DNA of 58,000 nucleotides from Verrucomicrobiales bacterium. GTDB taxonomy: Bacteria > Verrucomicrobiota > Verrucomicrobiia > Verrucomicrobiales > V1-33. The stretch covers positions 1 through 58,000 of the forward strand of contig JBIICE010000002.1 in NCBI GenBank assembly GCA_044239025.1. Direction: 5' to 3'. The notes under the pieces are model-generated. The model did no database searches and was not told the origin of the DNA. It saw only the letters and a list, made by a program, of their open reading frames with translations. A program made the translations under genes and the position numbers. This document shows, in pieces, positions 13,420 to 31,167 of the stretch; position 1 is the first letter of the stretch; the number at the start of each line of letters is the position of its first letter.

Positions 13420-14418
13420 ATGGAACCTCTCCACAACATGAAGGCTGTTGCCCTCCGCACGGGGCTGAGCCCTCATCTCGTGCGCATGTGGGAAAAGCGG
13501 TACGCCGCGGTCCGTCCAGGACGCAGCCTCACGCAGCGGCGGCTCTACACGGAGGACGAGGTGGAGCGTTTGAGCATGCTGGCCCGCCTGACGAGAACCG
13601 GGTTGAACATCGGCCAGATTGCGAGGCTGGAGACGGCCGAGCTGAGGGCCATGATTGACCGGCTGGGGGACGTGCCCGGGGCACCGCTTCCTCCCGGGCG
13701 GGCCGTTGCTCTGGTCGATGCCGGAACGCTGGTGCAGCGCGCCCTCGACTGTGTCTGCGGATACGATGTGCCGGGACTGGAGCGAACTCTGGACGAAGCG
13801 ATGCTGGTGATGGGTCATTCCGGGATGCTGGAACGCGTGCTGGTGCCATTGCTGCAGAGGGTGGGTGCGGAGTGGCAGAAGGGATTTCTGACCGCCGCGC
13901 AGGAGCACGGAGCGACCAGTGCCATCAAGGATTATCTGAGCCGGACGCTGCGGCCGGTGAGTACGCCGGAGTCTGCCCCCCGCCTGCTGGTGACCACGCC
14001 AACGGGGCAACTGCATGAAATGGGCGCAGCGATCGCGGCGGGATTGGCTCGGAAGTCGGGGTGGAACGTGACTTACCTGGGGCCTTCGCTTCCCGCCGAG
14101 GAGATCGTGGGAGCGGTCATGATGAACAGTATCGGTGCGGTGGCGCTCAGCATCGTCTATCCCGCGGACGATCCGGATCTTCCCGGTCAGATGGTACGGC
14201 TGCGCAGCCTGCTGCCGGACGAGATTCCTGTGATCGTGGGAGGGCAGGCGACCTATGCCTACGACGAGGTGCTCACGCAGATTGGAGCCATCCGGGTGGC
14301 GGACATGGAGGAATTCACGAGGGTGCTCCTCGAAGTCCGCGAGGGACAGCACAAATCGAGAATCACGTCCATGCCAGCCCGCAACGGGCGGCCGGCTCAG
14401 CGTCAGATCCGGAGCTGA
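13420..14418 (+). CDS. MerR-family regulator with cobalamin-binding domain, CarH/LitR-type (putative B12-dependent light sensor)
   Basis: MerR HTH: MKAVALRTGLSPHLVRMWEKRYAAV...RRLYTEDEVERL. Helical-bundle motif W-x9-EH (WQKGFLTAAQEH, W at 13873, EH at 13903-13908). B12 lower-ligand motif GQLHEMG (His codon 14014-14016), followed by a Rossmann-like segment WNVTYLGPSLPAEEIV. The track ORF begins at 12751, but that part overlaps selB antisense. The start is ATG 13420 or 13438. Confidence 0.8.
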   Translation: MEPLHNMKAVALRTGLSPHLVRMWEKRYAAVRPGRSLTQRRLYTEDEVERLSMLARLTRTGLNIGQIARLETAELRAMIDRLGDVPGAPLPPGRAVALVDAGTLVQRALDCVCGYDVPGLERTLDEAMLVMGHSGMLERVLVPLLQRVGAEWQKGFLTAAQEHGATSAIKDYLSRTLRPVSTPESAPRLLVTTPTGQLHEMGAAIAAGLARKSGWNVTYLGPSLPAEEIVGAVMMNSIGAVALSIVYPADDPDLPGQMVRLRSLLPDEIPVIVGGQATYAYDEVLTQIGAIRVADMEEFTRVLLEVREGQHKSRITSMPARNGRPAQRQIRS

Positions 14419-14579
14419 GGCGGTGCCACGAGCATGCTCCTGCCTTCCCGGAATGGCGACTCGGCAAGGAATCTCGCTGCAAGGCAGGACGGAACGAAGC
14501 GCTCGGGAAAAGGCCCGTCGGTCGCAGGGGAACGCGTCAATCACCCGTGGAGCAGCCATTCTTCCGACTACCGCGTGCC

Positions 14580-14639
14580 CGCATCCGCTGCCGTTCCCGG
14601 TTTTTCGAAAGGCTGCTAACGGCGGGAGGCGCGGATGCG
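14580..14639. terminator. Long imperfect inverted repeat at the convergent junction of the CarH-like and CotH-like genes (possible bidirectional terminator)
   Basis: CGCATCCGC (14580-14588) pairs with GCGGATGCG (14631-14639). An inner pair GCCGTT (14590-14595) / AACGGC (14618-14623) lies within it, and the loop contains GGTTTTT. The structure spans the CotH-like stop codon. No clean trailing T-run. Confidence 0.3.
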
Positions 14640-17600
14640 TTGAAAGTGGAGCGCCCTGGTGCTGCTCCAATGCAGAAAACGGGACCCGTCGCCGGTGCGA
14701 GTCTCGCCCGCGTATAGCCATTCGCCCGGGCCCTGCCACGGTCCAGCGGTGGTGGCGGCACTCTCCGGTTTCCACGAAGCATCGTCGTGTCCGGGAGGCA
14801 CCTGGATGGCAAGGTTCCATCCTTCCGGGGTCGCATTCATCCTGAGGGTCTGCGCCCATGGCAGGGCGTAGGCGGACCATGCTTCCGCATTGTCGCCCGA
14901 AAAGGCGATGGCGTCGTCGCCAGCCGGTGAACCTCCGACGAAGGTGCTGGTGCGCCATGCTTCCGGAGAGCTGCCGGATTCCGATTCGCGGACGTTGATG
15001 CGGGTAAGGCTATAGCCTCGGCCGTCAGCGGCAGCGGGCCAAGGTGCGCGGTCGTTCCATGCGAGCGAATCGATGACCAACGATGGCGACATCAGATGAA
15101 GGGAGCCGCCGTGGTCCGGCAGCGGGCCGGAGAATTCGCCAGCGACTCCAAAGCCGGGGCCGTAGCGGGCGGCAAAGGCCGCCTTGCTGGCGGCGACCAC
15201 GAGGCGGGCACCGGGTTCCAGCGACCACTGGTCGCCATTCCGGAACGAGTACGTGGCCGCGCCGCGCAGATCGCACGCGAGCAGACTGACCTTTGCGGGG
15301 CTCAGGTTGAGTATCTCGATGAATTCGAAGTCGTCGGCGTTCCGCCGGCCATCGGGGTTCTCGGATGGTGAGGGTGTGGAGGGGTGGTAGTGGATCTCCG
15401 AGATCACCAGATCGCCGGGTGCCGGGTTGGCTGCATCGGTGACGAATACGGCTCCGGTTGGAGCGCTCCATGCCGCGCCCGTCCGGGACCGGGCCATGAT
15501 GCGGGTATCCCGTTGGATCTGGCCGGCCGGTGCGCTGGAGGAATCCGGAGCCGGCGCTCCGCCGCTGGCCCGCGGGTCGCCGTCAGGTCTCCACGAGGCT
15601 GAATCCGCCGTGGTGAGGACTTCGAATGTGGTGCCTGCAGGGACGCTTCCCCCATTTGGCTGAATCTGTGGCGCTGGCAGAAACTGCTGGTCAAGGAAGG
15701 CGGTACGGGTGCGCAGCCATTGCTTCATGCTGGTGAGTCGTGCGCTCCATTCGTCAGGGGAAGGAACACCCTGAGCGACAGCCTTGGCCGTGGTGATTTC
15801 CGCGGCCTGAGCCTCAATGATCCGGGCCATGGCAGCGTCGCTCAGGCTGGAGCTGCGCCACGCGGCCCACTGGTCGGTGTATTGCTGCAGAAAATCGGGA
15901 TCGGCGAAGAGTCGGGGAAACCAGAGCTGTTCGCGACGGTACCATGGGGCGGCGGCCGCTGTGCCCTGAACGAAGTATCCACCAAAGTTGACATCCCATA
16001 GCGGGCCCATGCGGAGGCGACGGTCATTTCCCAGCCATGGATAGAGACTGAGCCGGAGAGCGTCGCTGTGACGGATGAGATTTTGCAGCAGGTAACCCTG
16101 CACCCAGTCAGTGGAATCAAGCCATGACCGGTACCCGCGGGTGGGATGCAGCCACGAGGCGTCGTTGTAGAGGGTGGTTTCAAAGCTGCGGAACCAGCCT
16201 TCAAGGGCATTGCGCTGGGTACTGCTGATGGTGTCGCCGGAGGGTTGATCAAAATTCAGGAAGGCCTGGGCCCATGAGGGAAGGTCGTCGCCCTTGACCG
16301 GTTGCGTGTTGGCGGCGGTCTGCAGGAGTCCATCGGGCCCGGCCGTGTGGAAGAACTGGGGGGACATGGCACCGTTGGGAGAGGGCCAACCCGTTTCCGG
16401 TTCCGGGTCCATGCGATTGATGCTGAGTAGCGCGCCGCCGCGCTGCCCGTCCATGCTGAGGCGGTCGAAGGGCAAGCGGGCATCTCCCCGTGATACCTTC
16501 TCGAGCAGAGCATAGACCCCGCGACGGTCCGCAGATGTCATGGCTCCGCCATCTTCATTGAGGAAGACCTCAGTGAAGCGGAACCGTGGAGCCCAGCGTC
16601 CGAGGGTACGGCTCAACTCATACGCGAAGGTATTGAAGAGCATGGTGGGGTCGCGGAAGTCGCCCCCGGTGGGGTCCGGGTAGTAGAGCGCAAACTCGTC
16701 ATTGGCTGGCAGTCCGAGGGGGCCCGCGTCGGTCTTGACTCCGGCCGGGTCGCGCGGCTGCACATGATATGGTTTCTGAGCCCATGTGGTGGAAATGGCT
16801 CCCCGGCCCCGTATTCCGATGAATCCGGCCAATTGAGGTGGGGAGGAGGGGGACGCGGTGGCACCGTTCCGTTCAAAAAGGAGCCATGCGGCCTCCTGTT
16901 GGGGGACCTGTCTGACTCCGGCTCCATTGCTGCTCCAGCCTTTGGACGGGACGGTGCCCTGACCGAAGTTCTCGATGAGGAGTATCGGCAGCGGTGACTG
17001 CCACGCCGCGAGGTCCGGGGAGAGGCGGATCCATGCCGCTGCGGTGACTGCGCTGGTGAAACCACCAGAGGCAGCCACGGCGCGCAGCCTGGTGGAGGCT
17101 GTCAGTTCAATGGGTCCATGGTACTGGAGGGCCTCGCCGGGAACCGGGAGGCTCCCATCCGTCGTGTACCAGATGGTGGCGTCCGCTGCGCCCGTCGCGA
17201 GGTTGACCTGCATGACGCCGGTGAAGATGCCGGAAGGTGGCGAAAGGGTGACCGGTGAGACGGGCGGCGAAGGGACATTCGGCAGCCCGGGACTGGGCTG
17301 CGTCATGAACTGCGGCGAGGTGGAATCCGGGAGCGGGCCGAACGAGACGTCAGGAAGCTGCGGTGGAAAGGCCGGCGTGAATTCACTGAGAGTGATGCCC
17401 TGCCAGGTCAGGCCAAGGTATTCACCTTCCGCTGCGAGCCGGAAGGAGGCATGCCATGGCCCGGACGGCGGGGTGCGGTTCTTGCCGGAGGCGAAGATCA
17501 CGAGGAAGCCGCCCGGGGGCAATGTTCCCGGCGGCAGTTTCCATCGCAAAGGATCGGCGGGTTCATCGGTCAGGGCCACATCCGCGAGCGAAACGGGGTT

Positions 17601-17780
17601 GGGCGAGGGGTTGTGGAGCTCGATCCAGTCGCTGCGGTCGCCATCCTCGTCACGGAGTCCGTTCCGGTTCAGCGCCATGAATTCCGAAATGATGAGCGGT
17701 GGAGCGGCAGCGAGTGCCGCGGGAAACGTCAGGACCATCGCCACGATGCACTGAATAATTCGCGTTGGCCTGCGTTCCAT
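14616..17780 (-). CDS. Secreted CotH-family (atypical kinase-like) protein with lamin-tail (LTD) domains at both ends and a chitobiase/Fn3-associated-like module
   Basis: 1054-aa ORF with signal peptide MERRPTRIIQCIVAMVLTFPAALAAA. LTD-like segments LIISEFMALN...DWIELHNPSPNPVSL and LVISEIHYHP...FEFIEILNLSPAKVSL. CotH-like core: RFTEVFLNEDG...GVYALLEKV, WVQGYLLQNLIRHSDA, GPLWDVNFGG, FPRLFADPDFLQQY. Confidence 0.85.
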   Translation of the reverse strand: MERRPTRIIQCIVAMVLTFPAALAAAPPLIISEFMALNRNGLRDEDGDRSDWIELHNPSPNPVSLADVALTDEPADPLRWKLPPGTLPPGGFLVIFASGKNRTPPSGPWHASFRLAAEGEYLGLTWQGITLSEFTPAFPPQLPDVSFGPLPDSTSPQFMTQPSPGLPNVPSPPVSPVTLSPPSGIFTGVMQVNLATGAADATIWYTTDGSLPVPGEALQYHGPIELTASTRLRAVAASGGFTSAVTAAAWIRLSPDLAAWQSPLPILLIENFGQGTVPSKGWSSNGAGVRQVPQQEAAWLLFERNGATASPSSPPQLAGFIGIRGRGAISTTWAQKPYHVQPRDPAGVKTDAGPLGLPANDEFALYYPDPTGGDFRDPTMLFNTFAYELSRTLGRWAPRFRFTEVFLNEDGGAMTSADRRGVYALLEKVSRGDARLPFDRLSMDGQRGGALLSINRMDPEPETGWPSPNGAMSPQFFHTAGPDGLLQTAANTQPVKGDDLPSWAQAFLNFDQPSGDTISSTQRNALEGWFRSFETTLYNDASWLHPTRGYRSWLDSTDWVQGYLLQNLIRHSDALRLSLYPWLGNDRRLRMGPLWDVNFGGYFVQGTAAAAPWYRREQLWFPRLFADPDFLQQYTDQWAAWRSSSLSDAAMARIIEAQAAEITTAKAVAQGVPSPDEWSARLTSMKQWLRTRTAFLDQQFLPAPQIQPNGGSVPAGTTFEVLTTADSASWRPDGDPRASGGAPAPDSSSAPAGQIQRDTRIMARSRTGAAWSAPTGAVFVTDAANPAPGDLVISEIHYHPSTPSPSENPDGRRNADDFEFIEILNLSPAKVSLLACDLRGAATYSFRNGDQWSLEPGARLVVAASKAAFAARYGPGFGVAGEFSGPLPDHGGSLHLMSPSLVIDSLAWNDRAPWPAAADGRGYSLTRINVRESESGSSPEAWRTSTFVGGSPAGDDAIAFSGDNAEAWSAYALPWAQTLRMNATPEGWNLAIQVPPGHDDASWKPESAATTAGPWQGPGEWLYAGETRTGDGSRFLHWSSTRALHFQRIRASRR

Positions 17781-17803
17781 CTCCGGAGAGTGTCATCGCC
17801 ACC

Positions 17804-18436
17804 ATGAAAACAAAATGGTTTTTCCTCCGGTTTGCCGCCCTGCTGCCGATCGTGCTGCTGAGCAGTTGTGTGACGGGTCCACCGTACTATGGCGGCACCG
17901 GCTACGGAGGGTTTCCCGACCAGGGCTGGGGTGACGGCTATGGCGGCACGTGGGCGGGCGGAGGGGTCGGATGGATTTCCGGGCCGTCCTATCTTCCGGG
18001 CGGCTGGTATGGATCGCGGGCGGTCTGCCCGCGGTGCGGTCGGAATCCCTGCTGCTGCCGAGGGGATGGCGATCACGAGCATGGTCAGTGGTCGCGGGAG
18101 CGGCAGCCTTCACAGAGTTTCTCGCGCAGCGCAGACCAGTCGCGCGGAAGTGCCGGACTTTACCGCATCAAGGATGCGGAAAAGGACGAGCCGCAAGGCT
18201 GGCACTCGAAGGAATGGTTTGCCAGCAAGGGGTACAGATTTTCCCGGAACACATGGGAGTCCCGTGGAGGACGCACCATTCAGGGATCCGAGATCCGGAA
18301 GCAGAGCAGTGACCGGTCCCGCAGCAGCGACCGGTCCCGCAGCAGTGACCGGTCCCGCAGCAGTGACCGGCCCCGCAGCAGCGACCGGCCCCGCAGCAGC
18401 GACCAGTCCCATGGAGGCGGCAGGCACAAGGAATGA
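17804..18436 (+). CDS. Lipoprotein with Gly/Tyr/Trp-rich region, Cys cluster and C-terminal SSDRSR tandem repeat
   Basis: ORF 17765..18436. ATG 17804 gives MKTKWFFLRFAALLPIVLLSSC (signal peptide plus lipobox LSSC), and GGAG lies about 14 nt upstream. CPRCGRNPCCC cluster. C-terminus is SSDRSR x3, SSDRPR x2, then SSDQS. Confidence 0.65.
   Translation: MKTKWFFLRFAALLPIVLLSSCVTGPPYYGGTGYGGFPDQGWGDGYGGTWAGGGVGWISGPSYLPGGWYGSRAVCPRCGRNPCCCRGDGDHEHGQWSRERQPSQSFSRSADQSRGSAGLYRIKDAEKDEPQGWHSKEWFASKGYRFSRNTWESRGGRTIQGSEIRKQSSDRSRSSDRSRSSDRSRSSDRPRSSDRPRSSDQSHGGGRHKE
18305..18409 (+). repeat. 18-bp tandem repeat, about 5.8 copies (AGCAGYGACCGGYCCCGC), encoding SSDR(S/P)R
   Basis: Direct reading gives units starting at 18305, 18323, 18341, 18359 and 18377, plus a partial unit at 18395. 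Only C/T differences at two positions distinguish the units. Confidence 0.9.
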
Positions 18437-18790
18437 CGGGTCGCCCGGGGAACCTGCGGCCGAGGCGGGACTGGCAGCGGATCCGGATCCTGTGGTAAGG
18501 CCCGCCGCCGCCTCGTGGGCTCGGTGCGGGATGCATGCCCGGGGGAGTTGCGCTTATCCCGCAGGGGCTGCGTCCCGGATCACGACCCTCGTGGGGCTGG
18601 AACTCCCCACGGTGCTTCCGCTGGTGGTGGTCCGATAGGCGTCACCGTCGAAGGCACGACAGCAGCGCACCGGGGCAGGGTTTTGCGGTGACCAAGCACA
18701 CGGCAATGAGCGAGGAACGGCACTGTCGGAATCCTTCAGGGTTCCCTGTGAAAGACTGACGCCAGAGCCCCCGGAGGTCTCAGCGCAAGC

Positions 18791-21319
18791 TCAGCCCTCG
18801 ACCACGGCGGCCTCGCCCTCGGCGGGCGGTGCTTCCTCCTCGACGGTGAACTTGAGGGAACGTTCTCCTTCTCGGCGGGCGACGCGGACTTTGTCGCCTT
18901 CCTTGATGTCGCCACGCAGCAGGTGTTCTGCGAAGGGGTCTTCAAGATGGCGTTCCACAGCGCGCCGCATGGGGCGGGCACCGTAGGCCGGGTCGTAGCC
19001 TTCCTCGATGAGGAGTTCCTTGGCCGACTCATCCAGTTCCACGTGAATGTTCTTGTCCCGCACGCGCTTGAGAACCTTGTCGATCTCAAGGTCGACGATC
19101 CGGATCAGGTCAGACTTCTCGAGCATGTGGAAGACGATGAGATCATCAAGGCGGTTGAGGAACTCCGGTTTGAAGTGCCGCTTGGCCTGCTCCGTGATCT
19201 TTTCCTTCATCGAGGCGTAGTCATGGGAGTCCGCCCCGATGGCACCGAAGCCCATGACATTCTGTTTCTTGATGAGTTCCGCCCCGACGTTCGATGTCAG
19301 AATGATGATGGTGTTCCGGAAGTCGACCTTGCGGCCGAAGCTATCCGTGATGGTGCCCTCCTCGAGGATCTGCAGGAGGAGGTGCATGACGTCCGGGTGG
19401 GCCTTCTCGACTTCATCGAAGAGCACCACGCTGTAGGGACGGCGGCGCACGGCCTCGCTGAGCTGGCCGCCTTCTTCGTAGCCAACGTAACCCGGAGGAC
19501 TGCCAATGAGCCGGCTCGCCGTGAATTTCTCCATGTACTCCGACATGTCGATCTGGATGAGAGCATCCGGATCACCGAACATGAACTCGGCGAGATTGCG
19601 CGCGAGAAAAGTTTTTCCGACCCCCGTGGGGCCAAGGAAGAGGAAGGAGCCAATCGGCCGCCGCGGATCCTTGAGGTCGGCACGGCTGCGGCGCAGGGCT
19701 TTCGAGATGGCTACCACGGCGTGGTCCTGGCCGATGACCTTGCCTTTCAGTTCCTGGTCCATCTTCAGAAGCTTCTGGGCTTCCTTTTCCTCCATCCGGT
19801 TCAGCGGAACGCCGGTCCATTTGCTGACAACCGACATGATTTCGTCGAGGCTGACGGTGACGCGCTTCTCCTCGTTGCTGGCGCGCCATGTTTCGATGAG
19901 CGATTCCAGTTTCTTGCGGGCATTGCGTTCCCCGTCGCGCAGCGCAGCGGCCTTCTCGAAATCCTGATCCTTGATGGCCGACTCCTTCTCGTTGCGGATG
20001 CGCTCGATTTCCGCCTCGATTTCCTTGAGTTCCGGCGGCCGAGTCATCGACGAGATCCGGGCGCGGGCACCGGCTTCGTCCATGATATCGATGGCCTTGT
20101 CCGGCAGGAAGCGGCCGGTCAGGTAGCGTGACGACAGTTTCACGGACTGGGTGATGGCTTCGTCCGTGTAGATGGCCTTGTGGTGCGCCTCGTACTTCGG
20201 CTTGATGCCCATGAGGATACGGATGGCGTCCTCTTCGCTCGGTTCCTCGACCTTGACGGTCTGAAAGCGCCGTTCGAGGGCGGCATCCTTTTCGATGTAT
20301 TTCCGGTACTCGTTCAGGGTCGTGGCTCCCACGCACTGAAGTTCTCCACGGCTGAGAGCGGGCTTGATGATGTTGCTCGCGTCCATGGCGCCTTCAGCCG
20401 AACCGGCTCCCACGATGGTGTGGAGTTCGTCGATGAACAGGATCACGTTGCGGTGACGCCGTATCTCGTCCATGACAGCCTTGATGCGTTCCTCGAATTG
20501 GCCGCGGTACTTGGTTCCGGCAACCATGAGGGCAAGGTCGAGAGTGATGACCTTCTTGTCGCGGAGAATTTCGGGGACGTTCCCGTTGACGATTTCCTGG
20601 GCGAGGCCTTCCACGATCGCAGTTTTGCCGACCCCGGCTTCTCCGATGAGGACCGGATTGTTCTTGGTGCGGCGGCAGAGAATCTGGATGACTCGTTCGA
20701 TTTCGTCGGCCCGCCCGATCACGGGATCCATCTCTCCTTTGGTGGCCAGTTCGGTCAGGTCGCGTCCGAAAGCCTTGAGTGCAGGAGTTTTGCTTTCCTT
20801 GGTCCCGGGACGGCTGCGCGGTTCGGCGGGGCCGGCCGATTCCTGGAATGCATCTTCCTCGCCCTCGTGCTCCTGAGGGGTGAAATTGGGATCGAGTTCC
20901 TTGAGGATTTCGTTGCGGGTGCGTTCGATGTCGATTTCGAGGCTCTTGAGGACCTGGGCGGCCACGCCTTCTCCCTCGCGGAGGAGGCCGAGGAGGATGT
21001 GCTCGGTGCCGACGTAGCTGTGATTGAGGGCGCGGGCCTCCTTGCTGGCGAGGGCGAGCACCTTCTTGACGCGGGGGGTGTACGGGATGTTCCCGACCAT
21101 CTTCTGTTCCTGGCCGCTGCCGACCTGCTTCTCGACCTCCATGCGCACGGTTTCGAGATCGAGTCCGAGTTTCTGCAGGACATTCACGGCGACGCCCTGG
21201 CCCAGCTTGATCAGACCGAGCAGGAGGTGCTCGGTGCCGACATAATTATGATTGAAGCGGTCCGCTTCCTTGCGGGCAAGGGCGAGGACCTGCTGGGCTC
21301 GGGGAGTGAAATTGTTCAT
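18791..21319 (-). CDS. clpC: ATP-dependent Clp protease ATP-binding subunit ClpC
   Basis: Clp_N repeats ([11 protein letters not shown] twice), Walker A motifs GEAGVGKT and GPTGVGKT, and a UVR-like linker [10 protein letters not shown]. 842 aa. Confidence 0.95.
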
Positions 21320-24607: not shown

Positions 24608-27187
24608 ATGCGCGGGTTCATTCTGCTGTTGCTGCTGCTTTCTGCGCTCGGATCCTGGGCGTCGGAGATTTCCTTCGGGAAATCGATCCGTCCCCTGCTC
24701 AAAGCGCATTGCTTTCATTGTCATGGCGAGGGCGGTCGGAAGGAAGGAGGTGTGGATCTGCGGCTGCGGCGGTTTCTGCTGAAGGAGACGGATGCGGGAC
24801 CGGTGATGGTTCCCGGAGATCCCGGGCGCAGCCACCTGCTTGCGCTCGTGAGGAGCGGTGAGATGCCGAAGGGTGAAACGAAGCTTTCCGCGGCTGAGAT
24901 CGGGCTGCTGGAGTCATGGATCGCGGCCGGCGCTCCGGTGCAGACGCCCGAACCCGAGAGCATCCCCGACATCTACATTCCCGACGAGGAACGGAATTTC
25001 TGGAGCTTCCGTCCGGTGCAGGCCAGCGCGGTTCCCGTCGGTGCAGGCCATCCTGTGGATCTCTTCGTTGGCGCACAACTTCGCGCGGCCGGATTGGATT
25101 TTCTGCCCGAGGCGGATGCCCCCACGCTTTTCCGGCGGCTGAGTTTCGATCTGACGGGTCTTCCTCCGGAGCCGGAAGCGCTCGAAGCATTTCTGGCCGC
25201 ATGGGAACGGGATCCGGAGTCCGCGTGGCAGGAAGCCATCGGGGCGGCGCTTTCCAGTCCACACTATGGCGAACGCTGGGGGCGCCACTGGCTCGATGCC
25301 GCAGGGTATGCGGACTCGGACGGACACGAGGCCGACAAGCCTCGCGCCCACGCGTGGCACTACCGGGACTATGTGGTCGCCGCCCTCCGTGACGACCTGC
25401 CATGGGACCGCTTTCTCATGGAGCAGCTTGCGGGCGACGAACTGGCAGCCGTCACGCATGATACGGCGGCCGCATCGGTTCATCGGGAAGGGGTAGCGGC
25501 GCAGTTGGCGGCCACGGGCTTCCTCCGTATGGCCCCCGATCCCACCGACGAAGGCCTGCCGGACCCGGCGCTTGCCCGCAATCAGGTCATGGCGGAAACC
25601 ATCCGCGTGGTGACCAGTTCGCTGCTGGGCCTGACGGTGGCCTGCGCCCAGTGCCATGACCACCGCTACGATCCCATTTCGCATGTTGATTACCATCGGA
25701 TGCGGGCGGTTTTCGAACCCCTTTACGACTGGAAGGAATGGCGCCCGCCAGGGCAGAGGCTGTATTCACTGTACACGGCTGCGGAACGTGCCGAGGCCGC
25801 GCGGATCGAGGCCGAAGCCGCGGAGATGGACGCGGAACGAACGTCGTTTGCGCTCCGGCGGCTCGACCAGATCTTTGCAGAACGGTTGGCTCAGGTTCCG
25901 GAGGCCGAACGCGAAGCGGTGCGGGTGGCGCGCAACACCGGGGAAGCAAAGCGCACGCCCGCCCAGCAGGAACTGCTGAAGCGGTATGTGGAAGCCAATG
26001 TTGCCCGGCAGGAAGGATTGCTGCTGCTCTTCGATCCAGCGGCCGAGGCCACGCGCAAGGAAATGGAAGCGAAGGCGGCCACCCACAGGGCCACCCGCCC
26101 GAGGGAACGGTTTCTCATGGCGGCCACCGAGACTGGCAGCCGTCCGGTGACGGTGCTCTTCCACCGTGGCGATCACCTCCAGCCGCGCGGACCGATTGAT
26201 CCCGCCCCGCCCGAAGTGCTTGCCGCAGAACCTGTGAATCCGTTCGGTGGAACGATCCCCGAACTTCCGAGCAGCGGACGCCGCCTCGCCTTTGCCCGCT
26301 GGATCACCAGCGGGGACAACCCGCTGACCGCCCGTGTTCTCGTCAATCGTTTCTGGATGCACCATTTCGGGAGGGGCATCGTGCGCACCCCGGGCGATTT
26401 TGGCGCGCTCGGCGAGCGACCGACGCATCCCGAACTCCTTGACTGGCTGGCGTCTGATTTCGTCCGCCATGGCTGGCAGCTGAAACGCATGCACCGCCTG
26501 ATCCTCACGAGCCGGACGTGGCGTCAGCGAAGTGATCCGAACCCTCCCGATGGCACAGGCGAGCAACTCTATCACGGATGGAAACTGCAGAGGCTCGATG
26601 CTGAATCGGTCCGCGATGCCATGCTGGCCGTCAGTGGTCAGATTGACCGGCGTGTGGGCGGGGAACCTGTCCCGGTCGCCCGCGACGTCGGTTCCGGGCG
26701 CATCGTCCCGGGCCGCGAAGTCATCAACCCCGGCAACGGCATGATCGACCGCATCGACTCCGTCGCCGCACAGGGGAACCGCCGCAGCCTTTACATGGAA
26801 GCCCGCCGTTCCCGCCCGCTCACCGTCCTCGAGGCCTTCGATCTGCCGGTCATGAATCCCAACTGCACCGCCCGCTCGGTCACCACCGTGGCTCCCCAGG
26901 CGCTCCTGCTCCTGAACGACGCCTTCGTGGCCGAGCAGGCCGCCACCTTTGCGGCCCGGATCCGCAAGGCAACCGAGGCACCCGTGGAGCAGATCCGCTG
27001 CGCCTGGAAACTCGCCTTCAGCCGGGAACCATCCGCACTGGAAACCTCGCGCAGCCTCGTCTTCCTGCACCGGCAGCGGGAAGCACTGCGCCAGTCCGGC
27101 CAGGCGTCGGAATCGGCCGGGTCCCGTGCGCTCACGGCATGGTGCCACGTCCTGCTCGCCGCAAACCGATTCCTCTACCTCGACTGA
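24608..27187 (+). CDS. PSCyt1/PSCyt2(DUF1549)/PSD1(DUF1553) domain protein (Planctomycete-Verrucomicrobia type)
   Basis: ATG 24608 gives signal peptide MRGFILLLLLLSALGSWA. Heme-type CxxCH motif (CFHCHGEGG). DUF1549-like segments HWLDAAGYADSDGHE...WHYRDYVV and CAQCHDHRYDP. DUF1553-like segment NPLTARVLVNRFWMHHFGRGIVRTPGDFG...HPELLDWLA. Confidence 0.9.
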   Translation: MRGFILLLLLLSALGSWASEISFGKSIRPLLKAHCFHCHGEGGRKEGGVDLRLRRFLLKETDAGPVMVPGDPGRSHLLALVRSGEMPKGETKLSAAEIGLLESWIAAGAPVQTPEPESIPDIYIPDEERNFWSFRPVQASAVPVGAGHPVDLFVGAQLRAAGLDFLPEADAPTLFRRLSFDLTGLPPEPEALEAFLAAWERDPESAWQEAIGAALSSPHYGERWGRHWLDAAGYADSDGHEADKPRAHAWHYRDYVVAALRDDLPWDRFLMEQLAGDELAAVTHDTAAASVHREGVAAQLAATGFLRMAPDPTDEGLPDPALARNQVMAETIRVVTSSLLGLTVACAQCHDHRYDPISHVDYHRMRAVFEPLYDWKEWRPPGQRLYSLYTAAERAEAARIEAEAAEMDAERTSFALRRLDQIFAERLAQVPEAEREAVRVARNTGEAKRTPAQQELLKRYVEANVARQEGLLLLFDPAAEATRKEMEAKAATHRATRPRERFLMAATETGSRPVTVLFHRGDHLQPRGPIDPAPPEVLAAEPVNPFGGTIPELPSSGRRLAFARWITSGDNPLTARVLVNRFWMHHFGRGIVRTPGDFGALGERPTHPELLDWLASDFVRHGWQLKRMHRLILTSRTWRQRSDPNPPDGTGEQLYHGWKLQRLDAESVRDAMLAVSGQIDRRVGGEPVPVARDVGSGRIVPGREVINPGNGMIDRIDSVAAQGNRRSLYMEARRSRPLTVLEAFDLPVMNPNCTARSVTTVAPQALLLLNDAFVAEQAATFAARIRKATEAPVEQIRCAWKLAFSREPSALETSRSLVFLHRQREALRQSGQASESAGSRALTAWCHVLLAANRFLYLD

Positions 27188-27345
27188 TCCGGCTTTGCGG
27201 CGCGGACATGGCGAAGGCCCGGCGGCCGCAGTGGCAGAAAGGGAGTCTGCTTCTTATTAAGAACTACTGATTTCTTGACAATTCTGAATTATGAATTGAT
27301 CTTCAGCTTGCCGGATGGGCCGGTGACTCGTAACTGCTGACAAAC

Positions 27346-28557
27346 ATGGCTGCACAGGCTTCCCCATTTCCGCTAAGAGTCGGTATTTCCGGCACCGGTT
27401 TCATTGCCCGGGGGTTCAAGGCATTGTCGAGGAATTTCAAGGACATGCGGGTAACGGCGGTGCTCACACGACGGCATCCGCTGTCGGTGGAGGGGATTGC
27501 GCGCGATCTGCTGGTCTCTGATCCCGAGGAGCTGGTATCGCGCTGCGACCTCGTGCTGGAATGCACTGGCGATGTCATCCGGGCCACCGAGGTGGTGGAT
27601 GCTGCCTTTCGCGCCAGCCTGCCGGTGGTGACGATGAACAGTGAGTTTCACCTGACTACCGGGTCATGGTTTTCGGGCCGGGGGATTCTCACCGAAGCGG
27701 AAGGCGACCAGCCGGGCTCGCTGGCGGCACTCGCCGAGGAAGTGTCAGGCATGGGATTCCGCCCTGTGGTTTACGGGAATACGAAACGATTCCTCAATCC
27801 GAATCCATCGGTGGAGGAAATGGAATTCTGGGCTGCCAGGCAGGGGATCTCGCTGGAGCAGGTAACGGCGTTCACGGACGGATCAAAGGTGCATTTCGAG
27901 CAGGCGTTCATCGCCAATGGGACCGGAGCGCAGCTACCCGCTGGTGGCCTGCGCGGACCTTCCGTGGCCACCCTTCAGGAAGGCGCAGAGGCGATCGCCG
28001 GCCTGATCACGGAGGGTGGAGCCATTGCTGACTACCTTGTGACCAACGATGCGCCGGGGAGTGTCTTCATCGGGGCGACTCATGACGGGAGTCACGTCGA
28101 TGCCCTCCGCTACATGAAGCTGGGGGAGGGTCCGCTTCATGTGTTCACGAGGCCTTTCCATCTCTGTTACTTCGAGATTGCCAAGACGATCCGCCGGATT
28201 GCCTTTCAGCATCTCCCCCCGCTGCTCACCAACGGAATGGTGCCCCGTTATGGGATTGCTGCCGTAGCCAAGCGCACCCTCGAACCCGGCGAGCGCATCC
28301 CCAGAGGCCTCGGGAGCTTTGCCGTCCGGGGAGAAGCGGTGGAACTGAGCGACAACCTCGGGCACTGTCCGATTGGACTGCTGCAGAACGCCGTGCTGCG
28401 GCGGAAAGTCAGGCCGGGGGAAATCCTCGGCATGGACGATGTGGCATTGCCGGATTCGCTGGCGCTGCAGGCATGGATGGAGATCGAGAGCCGGGTTCGT
28501 GCCGCGGGACGGATGAAGGCCACCCCGATCGCTGCCTTCGCATCGGCGGCACCCTAG
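27346..28557 (+). CDS. NAD(P)-binding oxidoreductase with C-terminal SAF-like domain (COG4091 'predicted homoserine dehydrogenase'-like)
   Basis: Rossmann-like N-terminus RVGISGTGFIARGF. The central dehydrogenase-like region and the C-terminal segment (LEPGERIPRGLGSFAVRGEAVEL...) resemble a SAF domain. Assignment from memory of the family pattern only. Confidence 0.6.
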   Translation: MAAQASPFPLRVGISGTGFIARGFKALSRNFKDMRVTAVLTRRHPLSVEGIARDLLVSDPEELVSRCDLVLECTGDVIRATEVVDAAFRASLPVVTMNSEFHLTTGSWFSGRGILTEAEGDQPGSLAALAEEVSGMGFRPVVYGNTKRFLNPNPSVEEMEFWAARQGISLEQVTAFTDGSKVHFEQAFIANGTGAQLPAGGLRGPSVATLQEGAEAIAGLITEGGAIADYLVTNDAPGSVFIGATHDGSHVDALRYMKLGEGPLHVFTRPFHLCYFEIAKTIRRIAFQHLPPLLTNGMVPRYGIAAVAKRTLEPGERIPRGLGSFAVRGEAVELSDNLGHCPIGLLQNAVLRRKVRPGEILGMDDVALPDSLALQAWMEIESRVRAAGRMKATPIAAFASAAP

Positions 28558-28600: not shown

Positions 28601-29359
28601 ATGATTCTCGGGAAACGAGTGATAGTGACCATGCCGGCGTACCATGCGGGACGCACGGTGGAGAAAATGGCGTCTGCCATGCCGCGCGACGTGATCGACG
28701 AAGTGATCTTCGTGGACGATGCGTCTGGAGACGATGGGTACGAGAAGGCAGTGAAGGCTGGACTCACGGCCTTCCGCAACGAACGGAATCTCAACTATGG
28801 CGGAAACGTGAAACGATGCCTGCAGCTGGCGCTCGATCACGGAGCCGACATCGCCGTCCTTCTGCATCCCGACTGCCAGTACACCCCATCGCTGGTCCCG
28901 GCCATGGCAGCGATGCTCTGCGGAACCCCCTACGATCTCTGCCTCGCCTCGCGCACCTCCGGAGCCGGCACGGTTTCAGCGGGCATGCCCTTCTGGCGCT
29001 ACCTGCCCAACCGCGTCATCACCACCTACATGTCATGGTGCCTCGGCGTGCGTCACACCGAGTACCACACGGGTTACCGTGCCTACTCCCGAAGGCTCCT
29101 CGAAGCGGTTCCCTTTCACAGCTACCGCAACGACTTCATCTTCGATAACCAGACCCTCATCGGAGCCATGGAGCGGGGATTCCGTACCTGCGAAGTCACC
29201 TGTCCGACGGTTTATCAGGACGACAGCAGCTCGATCCCCTTCGGCAAGAGTGTCCGCTACGGGCTGCAGTGCCTGAAGATTTCGCTTCCGTTCCTCCGGA
29301 AACGGATGCTGGGACAGGTCCAGCCACCCCGGCGGTGGCCCGAGGGCGATTTTGCCTGA
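28601..29359 (+). CDS. Glycosyltransferase family 2
   Basis: VTMPAYHAGRTVEKM, VIFVDDASGDDG (DxD-type) and LLHPDCQY, a typical GT-A fold N-terminal half. 252 aa, no TM segment. Confidence 0.85.
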   Translation: MILGKRVIVTMPAYHAGRTVEKMASAMPRDVIDEVIFVDDASGDDGYEKAVKAGLTAFRNERNLNYGGNVKRCLQLALDHGADIAVLLHPDCQYTPSLVPAMAAMLCGTPYDLCLASRTSGAGTVSAGMPFWRYLPNRVITTYMSWCLGVRHTEYHTGYRAYSRRLLEAVPFHSYRNDFIFDNQTLIGAMERGFRTCEVTCPTVYQDDSSSIPFGKSVRYGLQCLKISLPFLRKRMLGQVQPPRRWPEGDFA

Positions 29360-29517
29360 CCCCGGAAACGGCACCGGTTTTTCCGGAGCATCAGCCAGTC
29401 GGCCCGCCAAACGGCCAAGGCGGACATCCGCAACTTTGCGAAAAAAAATTCCCCAAACCGCTGCGCCCGTGTAGCTTCCGGGAGTTCAGAGAACGCCCAC
29501 CCGGAAACTTCACGCCT

Positions 29518-31167
29518 ATGGCTCCCGTCGAGAAATTTGTCCACGCAGTCCGCCGCCGCATGAGCTGGCAGCGGGCCCTGCGCGCCTTCCTGTGGTCGGT
29601 GCTGGCGGCAGCCCTCGCGCTGCTGGCTGTGTCCCTCGTCTACATGCTGCAGGGTTATGCGGTTCCCCGCCTCTGGTACGGCGGGGCCGCCCTCGCGGCG
29701 CTCGCCGGGGGCGCGGTCGCGTCCTTCCTGCGCCGACCCAACCTCGAGGAAGCCGCGGCCTGCGCCGACGATGCCTTCCAACTCCGAGACAGCATCGTTT
29801 CGCAGCGCCGCTTCGAGGCCGAACACCGGGAAGGCGGTTTCTTCAACCTGCAGGCAGAGCGCACCGCCGGCACAGTCAGCCAGCTCGATCCCGCTGCGCT
29901 TCCTTTTCCATGGCCGCGCAGGCTGGCTACGGGTGCTGGCCTGCTCGCGCTCGCCGCGTCGCTGACTGCCTTCAAGTCCACGGAGCAGTCGGTCCTCGAC
30001 CGCATGGCCCGCGAGGAGATGACCGAAGACCGCATGGAGGAAATCCGCAGAGACTTCGAGGAAGCCATCCGTGAACTCGAGAAGACCGCCGACGAGGAGG
30101 AGCTGAAGGAACTCAATGCCAATGAACTCAAGAAATACGTCGACGAACTGAAGGCCACGAAGGATGTCGCCGAGGCCATGAAGCAACTCGCGGAACTCGA
30201 GCGCAAGATGGACAAGGCCGCGAAGGCCCTTGAGCAGAAGAAGGAGGCCCAGCTCATGAAAAAGGCGGGCGAGGAACTCGAAAAAGAAGAGGATCCCCAG
30301 GCCCGCGAGCTGGCGAAGAAACTGAAGAACGAGCAGTTCAAGGAGGCTGCCAAGGATCTCGCGAAAATGATGCCTCAGGACGACGAGGCCAAAAAGACCG
30401 CCGAGAAACGGAAGGAAGCAGCCAAACTCAAGGCCGCCGCCAAACGCATGGCCTCCGCTGCCCGCGCCCAGAAGAGCAACCAGGCGAAAAACAGCCAGAA
30501 CGGCCGCGAGAATCAGCAGAACGGCCAGCAGGCCCAGGTTTCCCAGGCACCCCAGGAACAGGAGCTTTCCGAGGAACTCGAGCAGCTTGAAATGGAAGCT
30601 GACGAATACGATCAGCAGATGGAGGAAATGGAAGCCGACGAGAAAGCCGGCAAAGCCGATCCCTCCAAACTCGGCAAACTGGAAGCATCCAAGGCCAAGC
30701 TGGGCGAGCGGCTCGGCAAACTCGGCCAGCGTCTCGGGAAGATGGGTGCGAAGCGCGACGCCAGGATGAAGCTCCTCGGCATGTGCAAGAATGCCGGGCA
30801 GAGTCAGGGATTCCTCCAGGGCATGGGGCAGTCGCCTTTTGCCATGCCCGGAGGCAAGGAGGCCGGGGTGGGATCCATCGAGTCGCGCCGCGAGGGATCA
30901 GACGAACTGAGTGACAACGGCAACACGGCTCAGCTCAAGGGGCAGAAAGGCAGTGGACCGAGCCTGACCAAAGTGGAGGCTGCGGACGACGGTACCGGTG
31001 TGAGCAGCCGCCGCGGTGAAGCGCGGGAACGCACCTTCCGCCGCCAGTTTGAATCCTTCGTCCAGCGCGAGGACGTCCCGGAAGACGTCAAGGCCGGCGT
31101 GAAGAACTACTTCAATGCCCTGCATGCCGCCGAGGAAGCTGCTGCCGGGACCCCGGCCGGAAAGTAG
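29518..31167 (+). CDS. Membrane-anchored Lys/Glu/Gln-rich coiled-coil protein (hypothetical), first gene of the MoxR block
   Basis: ORF 29269..31167. The first ATG after the GT2 stop is 29518 (MAPVEKFVHAVRRRMSWQRALRAFLWSVLAAALALLAVSLV...). Two to three TM helices, then about 300 aa of heptad-like K/E/A/Q sequence. Purine-rich coding strand. Same strand as moxR and 57 bp from it. Confidence 0.65.
   Translation: MAPVEKFVHAVRRRMSWQRALRAFLWSVLAAALALLAVSLVYMLQGYAVPRLWYGGAALAALAGGAVASFLRRPNLEEAAACADDAFQLRDSIVSQRRFEAEHREGGFFNLQAERTAGTVSQLDPAALPFPWPRRLATGAGLLALAASLTAFKSTEQSVLDRMAREEMTEDRMEEIRRDFEEAIRELEKTADEEELKELNANELKKYVDELKATKDVAEAMKQLAELERKMDKAAKALEQKKEAQLMKKAGEELEKEEDPQARELAKKLKNEQFKEAAKDLAKMMPQDDEAKKTAEKRKEAAKLKAAAKRMASAARAQKSNQAKNSQNGRENQQNGQQAQVSQAPQEQELSEELEQLEMEADEYDQQMEEMEADEKAGKADPSKLGKLEASKAKLGERLGKLGQRLGKMGAKRDARMKLLGMCKNAGQSQGFLQGMGQSPFAMPGGKEAGVGSIESRREGSDELSDNGNTAQLKGQKGSGPSLTKVEAADDGTGVSSRRGEARERTFRRQFESFVQREDVPEDVKAGVKNYFNALHAAEEAAAGTPAGK

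Follow-up and report, generated by a model that had tools for sequence, protein, structure and literature searches.

We analysed a window of 58,000 nt from a Verrucomicrobiales bacterium (contig JBIICE010000002.1, positions 1 to 58,000) and followed up two genes in it: a gene for a CotH-domain protein with lamin-tail domains (LTDs), here called the CotH-LTD protein, and a small lipoprotein gene that is transcribed divergently from it. The pairing of these two genes is genuine, conserved and narrowly distributed in one lineage of the Verrucomicrobia. The two genes form a co-inherited, probably co-regulated head-to-head pair that encodes exported envelope proteins. In Bacillus subtilis CotH is an atypical Ser kinase whose substrates, CotG and CotB, carry tandem repeats rich in Ser, Lys and Arg, and cotG is transcribed divergently from cotH. 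A sequence-only reading of the window had proposed that a similar logic operates here, with the CotH domain as kinase and the Ser/Arg repeats of the lipoprotein as substrate; below we give the evidence on the pair and on each protein, the points that weigh against this proposal, and the explanations that compete with it.

A head-to-head gene pair kept in three sub-clades

The CotH-LTD gene occupies positions 14616..17780 on the minus strand and encodes 1054 aa, and the lipoprotein gene occupies 17804..18436 on the plus strand and encodes 210 aa. With the start codon of CotH ending at 17780 and the ATG of the lipoprotein at 17804, a spacer of 23 nt (17781..17803) separates the divergent start codons, as the sequence-only reading had stated; the spacer holds the palindrome CTCCGGAG. 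Over so short a distance, the promoter of each gene must be located inside its partner, and the transcription of the two genes would therefore be physically coupled. A scan of positions 14300-18900 gave no sigma-70 promoter-like or terminator-like sites, a scan that is uninformative for this phylum. No second CotH or lipoprotein paralog was found within the 58-kb window.

Relatives of the CotH gene were collected by a scan with one genome per species, which yielded 79 loci. Three of them (L001-L003, 61-76% identity) carry a homolog of the lipoprotein gene divergently upstream, and no other of the 79 loci does. In a search of 5.8 billion proteins with the lipoprotein, no more than seven clusters are close to it, and every one with visible context adjoins a CotH ortholog; a third sub-clade (P0024, L166) has the identical arrangement. 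Both genes are thus present at every locus found that carries an ortholog of either. The spacer is exactly 23 nt long in 9/9 loci of the three sub-clades (the window, L001-L003, L080, L083-L085 and L166), while its sequence differs between sub-clades, with GTGTCAT common to A and B.

The three sub-clades are about equidistant from one another (59-63% identity between the CotH proteins) and their flanking genes differ. Sub-clade A (the window, L001, L080-82) has SelB and a MerR/B12 gene on one side of the pair and ClpC on the other; in sub-clade B (L002, L003, L083-85) the pair lies between globin and DEAD helicase genes and those for E2 and YbaB, and in sub-clade C (L166) between PurT and ribosomal protein L19. 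The sequence-only reading had let its proposal depend on conservation of the pair in relatives, and the pair survives in every ortholog found, across all three sets of neighbours.

The MerR-type regulator of sub-clade A, which is found in that sub-clade only, lies at 13420-14418 (plus strand) and converges on the CotH gene at the latter's 3' end. It has two B12-binding domains, an architecture of the CarH/LitR-like type known from light-responsive regulators.

The CotH-LTD protein has a CotH fold and a conserved Asp pair

The domain order of the CotH-LTD protein, from the open reading frame (ORF) list and Pfam domains, is LTD, Fn3_assoc/CHB_HEX_C, CotH and LTD (all coordinates on the minus strand). 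The N-terminal LTD spans residues 24-105 (17466..17711; PF00932, E 7e-21, the better of two stretches), and is followed by a CHB_HEX_C_1/Fn3_assoc domain at residues 181-246 (17043..17240; PF13290, E 1.7e-11, and PF13287, E 7.7e-9). The CotH kinase-fold core covers residues 323-696 (15693..16814) and matches PF08757 over profile positions 1-322 of 322, with an E-value of 3.4e-23 and 83.1 bits against a cut-off of 23.8. The second LTD stretch starts near residue 791 and extends to about 929 (14994..15410), with boundaries (LVISEIHYHP ... YSLTRIN) picked by eye from located motifs; PF00932 scored 75.1 bits against a cut-off of 34.3 in two stretches, one at each end of the protein. The orthologs, 1049-1061 aa long, have an identical architecture, with the precomputed Pfam order LTD, Fn3_assoc, CHB_HEX_C_1, CotH, LTD. 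Both the LTD modules at the two ends and the CotH-like core of the sequence-only reading were thereby borne out, and all four strings that it had quoted from the core are present.

The N-terminus of the protein (MERRPTRIIQCIVAMVLTFPAALAAA), with a charged n-region, a hydrophobic core and ALAAA, looks on inspection of the translation like a Sec signal peptide (residues ~1-25, 17706..17780), in agreement with the earlier call, and a hydrophobic N-terminal segment is common to all CotH orthologs. Export by the Tat route, considered for the RR in MERRPTR, was ruled out: the RR is missing in sub-clade C and its context is unlike the Tat motif.

A single-sequence phmmer search of the full protein against PDB gave no match. 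A profile built from 29 LTD-CotH cores (alignment A1), on the other hand, matches the B. cereus CotH structure 5jd9, and a profile-profile comparison (hhalign) of the core with 12 Bacillales CotH sequences gave a probability of 96% over 308 columns. The AlphaFold2 model of the core, predicted from an alignment built from the hits of a homologous-protein search, has a predicted local distance difference test score (pLDDT) of 68 and a predicted template modelling score (pTM) of 0.72. In Foldseek this model matches 5jda and 5jd9 with an E-value of 5e-11, a probability of 1.00 and template modelling (TM) scores of 0.53-0.64; the matches that follow CotH are weak, to HipA and PI3K-type kinases, with no Fam20 among them. 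By profile and by fold, the protein belongs to PF08757.

CotH has equivalents of residues D166, N171 and D184 of protein kinase A (PKA), and sandwiches the adenine between Tyr142 and Trp245 (PMC12189002). In the B. cereus numbering assigned in this analysis these positions are D223, N228 and D246, with Y142 and W245 around the adenine. The inactivating mutants of B. subtilis CotH are D228Q and D251A (PMC7821199); judging by the equal spacing of 23 residues, D228 and D251 would correspond to D223 and D246 of B. cereus.

In the window protein the catalytic-loop motif HSDALRLS (16047..16070, minus strand) places D573 opposite B. cereus D223 (PKA D166) and S578 opposite N228 (PKA N171). The LWDVN motif (15987..16001, minus strand), which the sequence-only reading had already read as WDVN, places W595 opposite the adenine-stacking Trp245 and D596 opposite the metal-binding Asp246; Asn stands where WDYD of Bacillus has its second Asp. 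D573, W595 and D596 are invariant in 29/29 A1 cores and in 7/7 orthologs. The core thus has the catalytic Asp and the metal-binding Asp with its Trp, and lacks the catalytic-loop Asn. The sequence-only reading had also said that absence of the catalytic residues would refute its proposal, and this refutation does not arise: both Asp residues equivalent to D166 and D184 are invariant. The Asn has given way to Ser. The active-site motifs are nearly identical across orthologs with only ~60% overall identity, which argues for a working catalytic site, perhaps one that is not a canonical ATP site.

A lipoprotein of an undescribed family with a Ser/Arg-rich tail

The partner gene encodes a lipoprotein, as its signal peptide and lipobox indicate (LLSS-C22; 17804..17869, plus strand, as are all coordinates in this section). 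The lipobox pattern [LVI][ASTVI][GAS]C is matched by MKTKWFFLRFAALLPIVLLSS-C22; MKTKW and Cys22 are invariant in the lipoprotein alignment (A2), and Cys22 is at least 90% conserved among 44 family members. The signal peptide is followed by a Gly/Tyr/Trp-rich low-complexity region that is predicted to be disordered (17870..18022), and by the Cys motif CPRCGRNPCCC (CxxCxxNPCxC; 18026..18058), of which C75, C78, N81, P82, C83 and C85 are invariant in A2. The densest invariant columns of A2 fall in a block of ~47 aa (YRIKDAEKDEPQGWHSKEWF..GY.FSRNTWE...GR..QGSEIRK; 18161..18301). In the AlphaFold2 prediction most of the lipoprotein is disordered, with a mean pLDDT of 45; secondary structure is predicted within this block alone, as a helix at residues 136-141 and a hairpin at 144-166 (pLDDT ~57-64).

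The Ser/Arg-rich tail of 44 aa (18302..18433) contains 16 Ser, 12 Arg/Lys and 7 Asp/Glu. Most of it is encoded by an 18-bp tandem repeat (18305..18410) for which Tandem Repeats Finder gave 5.9 copies, 93% matches and a score of 170, close to the six SSDRSR/SSDRPR copies originally counted; as translated, the units are SSDRSR (three), SSDRPR (two) and SSDQSH (one). Chance does not account for the repeat by a wide margin, which does not by itself settle whether chance accounts for the pairing with CotH. The tail has 20-30% Ser and 20-28% Arg/Lys in each of sub-clades A, B and C. The repeat units differ, with the 18-bp SSDRSR unit in the window and, in sub-clade B, a 42-bp unit encoding GGGRSSGxSRGSxG together with a 12-bp unit encoding GS(D/E)R. 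Tail composition is thus retained while the sequence turns over, and the repeat units point to a tail that remains Ser/Arg(Gly)-rich through independent, lineage-specific repeat expansions. CotG-like proteins evolve in the same manner, with composition kept and repeat sequence turning over.

An exhaustive profile search extended the lipoprotein family to 45 representatives at E <= 1e-3. The members (P0024-P0067) are small, ~145-265 aa, and mostly have a recognisable lipobox; they share the Gly/Tyr-rich region, the CxxCxxNPCxC motif (its pattern matched in 34/44 wider-family members), a His/Asp-rich linker and the block PxG(W/Y)HSx(E/D)W(F/Y)xxRGY, and many have Ser and basic tracts in the tail or linker. 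The Cys motif and the His/Asp-rich linker suggest, speculatively, metal binding. The family gave no match to Pfam or NCBIfam, and is a new and undescribed family of the Verrucomicrobiaceae; 44 of its members gave no match to spore-coat Pfam families at E <= 0.1. Among the hits examined, searches for homologs returned only lipoprotein-like small proteins of this family, and none linked the family to CotG, a direct comparison with CotG not being among them. In L167/L168 (6807-8006) and L170 (6696-7904) two remote members, P0025 and P0029, are each followed by a same-strand radical-SAM gene with a LAM_C domain (lysine-2,3-aminomutase-like).

Points against a kinase and its substrate

Several observations weigh against the proposal that the CotH domain phosphorylates the tail, and they concern the active site, the cellular compartment and the distribution of the two families. 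In the catalytic loop the position of the Asn is taken by Ser578, and this residue is Ser in 29/29 LTD-CotH cores and Asn in 12/12 Bacillales sequences. In the strand RGGALLS (16422..16442, minus strand) the window protein has Ala450 after the invariant Gly-Gly; this Ala is found in 7/7 orthologs, where the other LTD-CotH proteins have Tyr, Trp or Phe, with one exception that has Cys. In the hhalign register B. cereus Y142 stands opposite Ser453 (core residue 163), with Ala450 nearby, and the register of this strand is ambiguous without model coordinates. The clade-specific Ala450 may cost the enzyme its second adenine-stacking residue. Moreover, the periplasm is generally taken to lack ATP, and both proteins carry export signals.

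The sequence-only reading had suggested a survey of LTD-CotH genes for adjacent divergent Ser/Arg(Lys)-rich ORFs. S/R-rich neighbours are not enriched at ~70 other LTD-CotH loci (3/105 against 12/566 background ORFs; Fisher p = 0.72), and two of the three neighbours found belong to the orthologs themselves. Neighbours were counted by a non-overlapping ORF tiling, which is crude and missed, for example, the MerR gene; a scan of all ORFs was discarded, as spurious wrong-frame Arg/Ser-rich ORFs swamped it in this GC-rich DNA. As a positive control, the same composition filter flagged a Ser/Thr+Arg/Lys repeat ORF in 54/80 Bacillales cotH loci, upstream and on the opposite strand in most of the flagged loci inspected, and the contrast between Bacillales and LTD-CotH loci is strong (p = 5.5e-23). 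The nearest CotH outgroups, P0008 and P0010 (58% and 53% core identity), are likewise without the lipoprotein, and their upstream genes are co-directional. The broader inference, that the module is general to LTD-CotH proteins, is not supported.

From the side of the lipoprotein, a CotH gene was called near none of the five remote family members inspected, four of which have 6-kb flanks while P0027 lies on a 1.9-kb contig; one of the five comes from a Verrucomicrobiaceae metagenome-assembled genome (MAG). Remote members that have Ser/basic tracts and no nearby CotH gene argue that the tail is not a signature of CotH pairing. CotH paralogs might act in trans, since these genomes carry several; MAGs with more than one CotH locus include those with L001 and L070, L002 and L010, and L003 and L006.

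Ala450 is confined to the clade that has the lipoprotein partner, and may reflect a different cofactor or substrate, coincident with the pairing. Among the matches listed by a tandem-repeat scan of all loci, one periodic repeat besides the orthologs' tails adjoins CotH. This perfect repeat (15 bp, 3.8 copies, SRTEI in one frame; L065:11141-11197) is situated ~80 nt downstream of CotH in a planctomycete; a larger ORF overlaps it, and it is perhaps not coding. In the Bacillales loci L139, L141, L143, L146, L151 and L163 the cotH-divergent ORFs have very regular repeats (TSRRN, RSSRRS, HKKSRS), and in L139, L141 and L146 a Ser-rich ORF also lies downstream of cotH on the same strand; these ORFs are possibly useful for comparing the evolution of CotG-like and CotB-like repeats.

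Other features of the window

Away from the pair, the GC skew changes sign at ~26000-28000, from positive on the left to negative on the right, with a cumulative maximum near 26 kb; this switch could mark a replication terminus or origin. The genes beside it encode a PSCyt1/PSCyt2/PSD1 protein and a DRL-type oxidoreductase. An AT-skew outlier of 0.29 at 30-32 kb coincides with a Lys/Glu/Ala-rich, coiled-coil-looking protein (29269-31167), which is followed by two ORFs (to 33131) that were judged by eye only to encode a MoxR-like AAA ATPase and a DUF58-like protein.

Discussion

The gene pair shares with the CotH-CotG/CotB system of B. subtilis the CotH fold, the Asp pair and the adenine-stacking Trp, as well as a small cotH-divergent gene with tandem repeats of Ser and basic residues that expand by lineage while their composition is kept. 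The transcription units overlap in both cases: the window start codons are just 23 nt apart, and cotH of B. subtilis has its promoter past the 3' end of cotG (PMC7821199). The differences are as marked. The window proteins carry a Sec signal peptide and a lipobox (both predicted) and come from a non-sporulating diderm, whereas those of Bacillus work in the cytoplasm of the mother cell; the window enzyme, unlike Bacillus CotH, has LTD and CHB_HEX_C domains and a Ser for the catalytic-loop Asn. Unlike CotG, its partner combines a lipid anchor with a Gly/Tyr-rich region, a Cys motif and a conserved block that is predicted to fold, and its repeats contain Asp and no Lys. The lipoprotein resembles CotG in composition, repeat dynamics and gene geometry only.

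Other systems offer further comparisons. In the favoured model, in which the CotH domain phosphorylates the tail, the pair would resemble the Fam20C-type secretory kinases and their Ser-rich secreted phosphoproteins, in that the enzyme has a kinase fold and a signal peptide and its target, met outside the cytosol, is an intrinsically disordered Ser-rich protein. The Golgi lumen, in which Fam20C works, imports ATP, and we know of no comparable supply for the bacterial periplasm. CotH has been described as a distant relative of Fam20C (PMC7821199), although the sequence relation of Fam20C to the window protein is no closer than the protein-kinase-like fold. The CotH invasins of Mucorales and the cellulosomal CotH proteins also join a CotH domain to accessory binding modules in a protein that is secreted or at the surface (PMC9973265), and two cellulosome papers mention both CotH and the lamin-tail domain; they differ in that no paired Ser/Arg-repeat partner is reported for them and their described role is adhesion, or none is assigned. 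The other LTD-CotH multidomain proteins, with hundreds of paralogs, share the core motifs RG, GG, D..xxS and WD and the LTD/CHB_HEX_C accessories, but are without the divergent lipoprotein and retain the aromatic residue after Gly-Gly.

The mechanism that we propose begins with coupled transcription of the two genes, whose promoters would interlock across the 23-nt spacer. Both proteins would then reach the periplasm or cell surface, where the CotH domain would phosphorylate serines of the basic lipoprotein tail and thereby alter its charge, by analogy with the action of CotH on CotG and CotB. This would amount to a CotH-CotG-like logic re-invented in the diderm envelope, and the re-invention would be a case of convergence, since the lipoprotein and CotG are not homologs as far as our searches link the families. 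The mechanism requires a phosphoryl donor outside the cytoplasm, and the clade-specific Ala, which stands in for a putative adenine-stacking aromatic residue, might be a sign that this donor is not ATP. Some functional coupling between the CotH protein and the lipoprotein seems to us slightly favoured by the evidence. That the CotH domain phosphorylates Ser in the tail is plausible, though less likely than not; the full model, in which an exported CotH kinase adds many phosphates to the Ser/Arg tail of a disordered protein anchored by lipid in a non-sporulating diderm and so switches its charge and assembly, would be unlikely in all its parts together. The CotH-CotG-like logic put forward in the sequence-only reading therefore holds up in part, by way of the conserved pair, the Asp residues and a geometry like that of most flagged Bacillales loci inspected, and finds no support in its generality or at the remote lipoproteins near which no CotH gene was called.

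Three other explanations have to be weighed, which overlap with the favoured model and with one another, so that the likelihoods given here need not add up to one. The two genes might be neighbours by descent with no biochemical relation, the Ser/Arg tail being a trait of the lipoprotein family. Such a frozen adjacency could hold because a 23-nt spacer with interlocked promoters makes almost any breakpoint inactivating, and it would suit a spacer that is so short and fixed in length, the remote family members with Ser/basic tails or linkers and no CotH gene called nearby, the unenriched S/R-rich neighbours across LTD-CotH loci, and the narrowness of the paired clade, in which only P0002 and P0024 (50%-identity representatives) fall below 1e-30. 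Against this stands the survival of the pair through rearrangement of both flanks in each of three sub-clades, with each ortholog found of either gene adjoining the other; tight spacing with exact conservation of its length in itself suggests shared regulation. We regard mere adjacency as a credible minority view. The genes could instead be coupled without being kinase and substrate, if the lipoprotein anchors, recruits or co-assembles the CotH-LTD protein at the outer membrane and the target of the CotH domain is something else (glycan, lipid, small molecule or a different protein), or the domain is a binding module. The conserved pair agrees with this, as does a CotH protein that has a signal peptide and no detected anchor of its own beside a partner predicted to be lipid-anchored; the clade-specific Ala and the change from Asn to Ser may be hints that nucleotides are handled in a non-canonical way, and LTD and CHB_HEX_C are accessory domains typical of surface or ligand-binding proteins. 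The strictly conserved catalytic Asp pair argues for catalysis, however, and other LTD-CotH proteins do without this lipoprotein; an anchoring role of this kind is somewhat unlikely.

The CotH domain could also be a dead pseudo-kinase or adhesin, as has been proposed for Mucorales, and the Ser-rich tail a flexible or glycosylated linker. The Asn-to-Ser change, the change from WDYD to WDVN and the loss of the aromatic residue after Gly-Gly would fit such a domain, as would a compartment that is thought to be free of ATP. The invariance of D573, W595-D596 and the surrounding motifs, in orthologs of ~60% identity and in 29 diverse cores, speaks against a dead site, where such conservation is not expected. 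There is a precedent in the Mucorales CotH proteins, which are receptors for host GRP78 (PMC9973265), but we consider this explanation improbable.

In Verrucomicrobiota, Planctomycetota and other phyla there are hundreds of secreted proteins with a CotH domain to which no function or substrate is assigned, and we found no literature on the function of LTD-CotH proteins of the PVC superphylum (Planctomycetota-Verrucomicrobiota-Chlamydiota). The lineage of the window provides the only candidate partner of a CotH-LTD protein that was found, and this partner is small (210 aa with a 44-aa tail) and directly testable. If the two proteins are not kinase and substrate, the resemblance to CotH-CotG would be coincidental and the lipoprotein family would become the focus; should the model be false, we are left with a secreted CotH paralog of the ordinary kind whose neighbour belongs to a new family of lipoproteins. 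If the model is true, the pair would represent the CotH-CotG logic in a new form, shifted to the diderm envelope, and would bring protein phosphorylation into the Gram-negative envelope, for which the source of the phosphoryl donor would then need an explanation.

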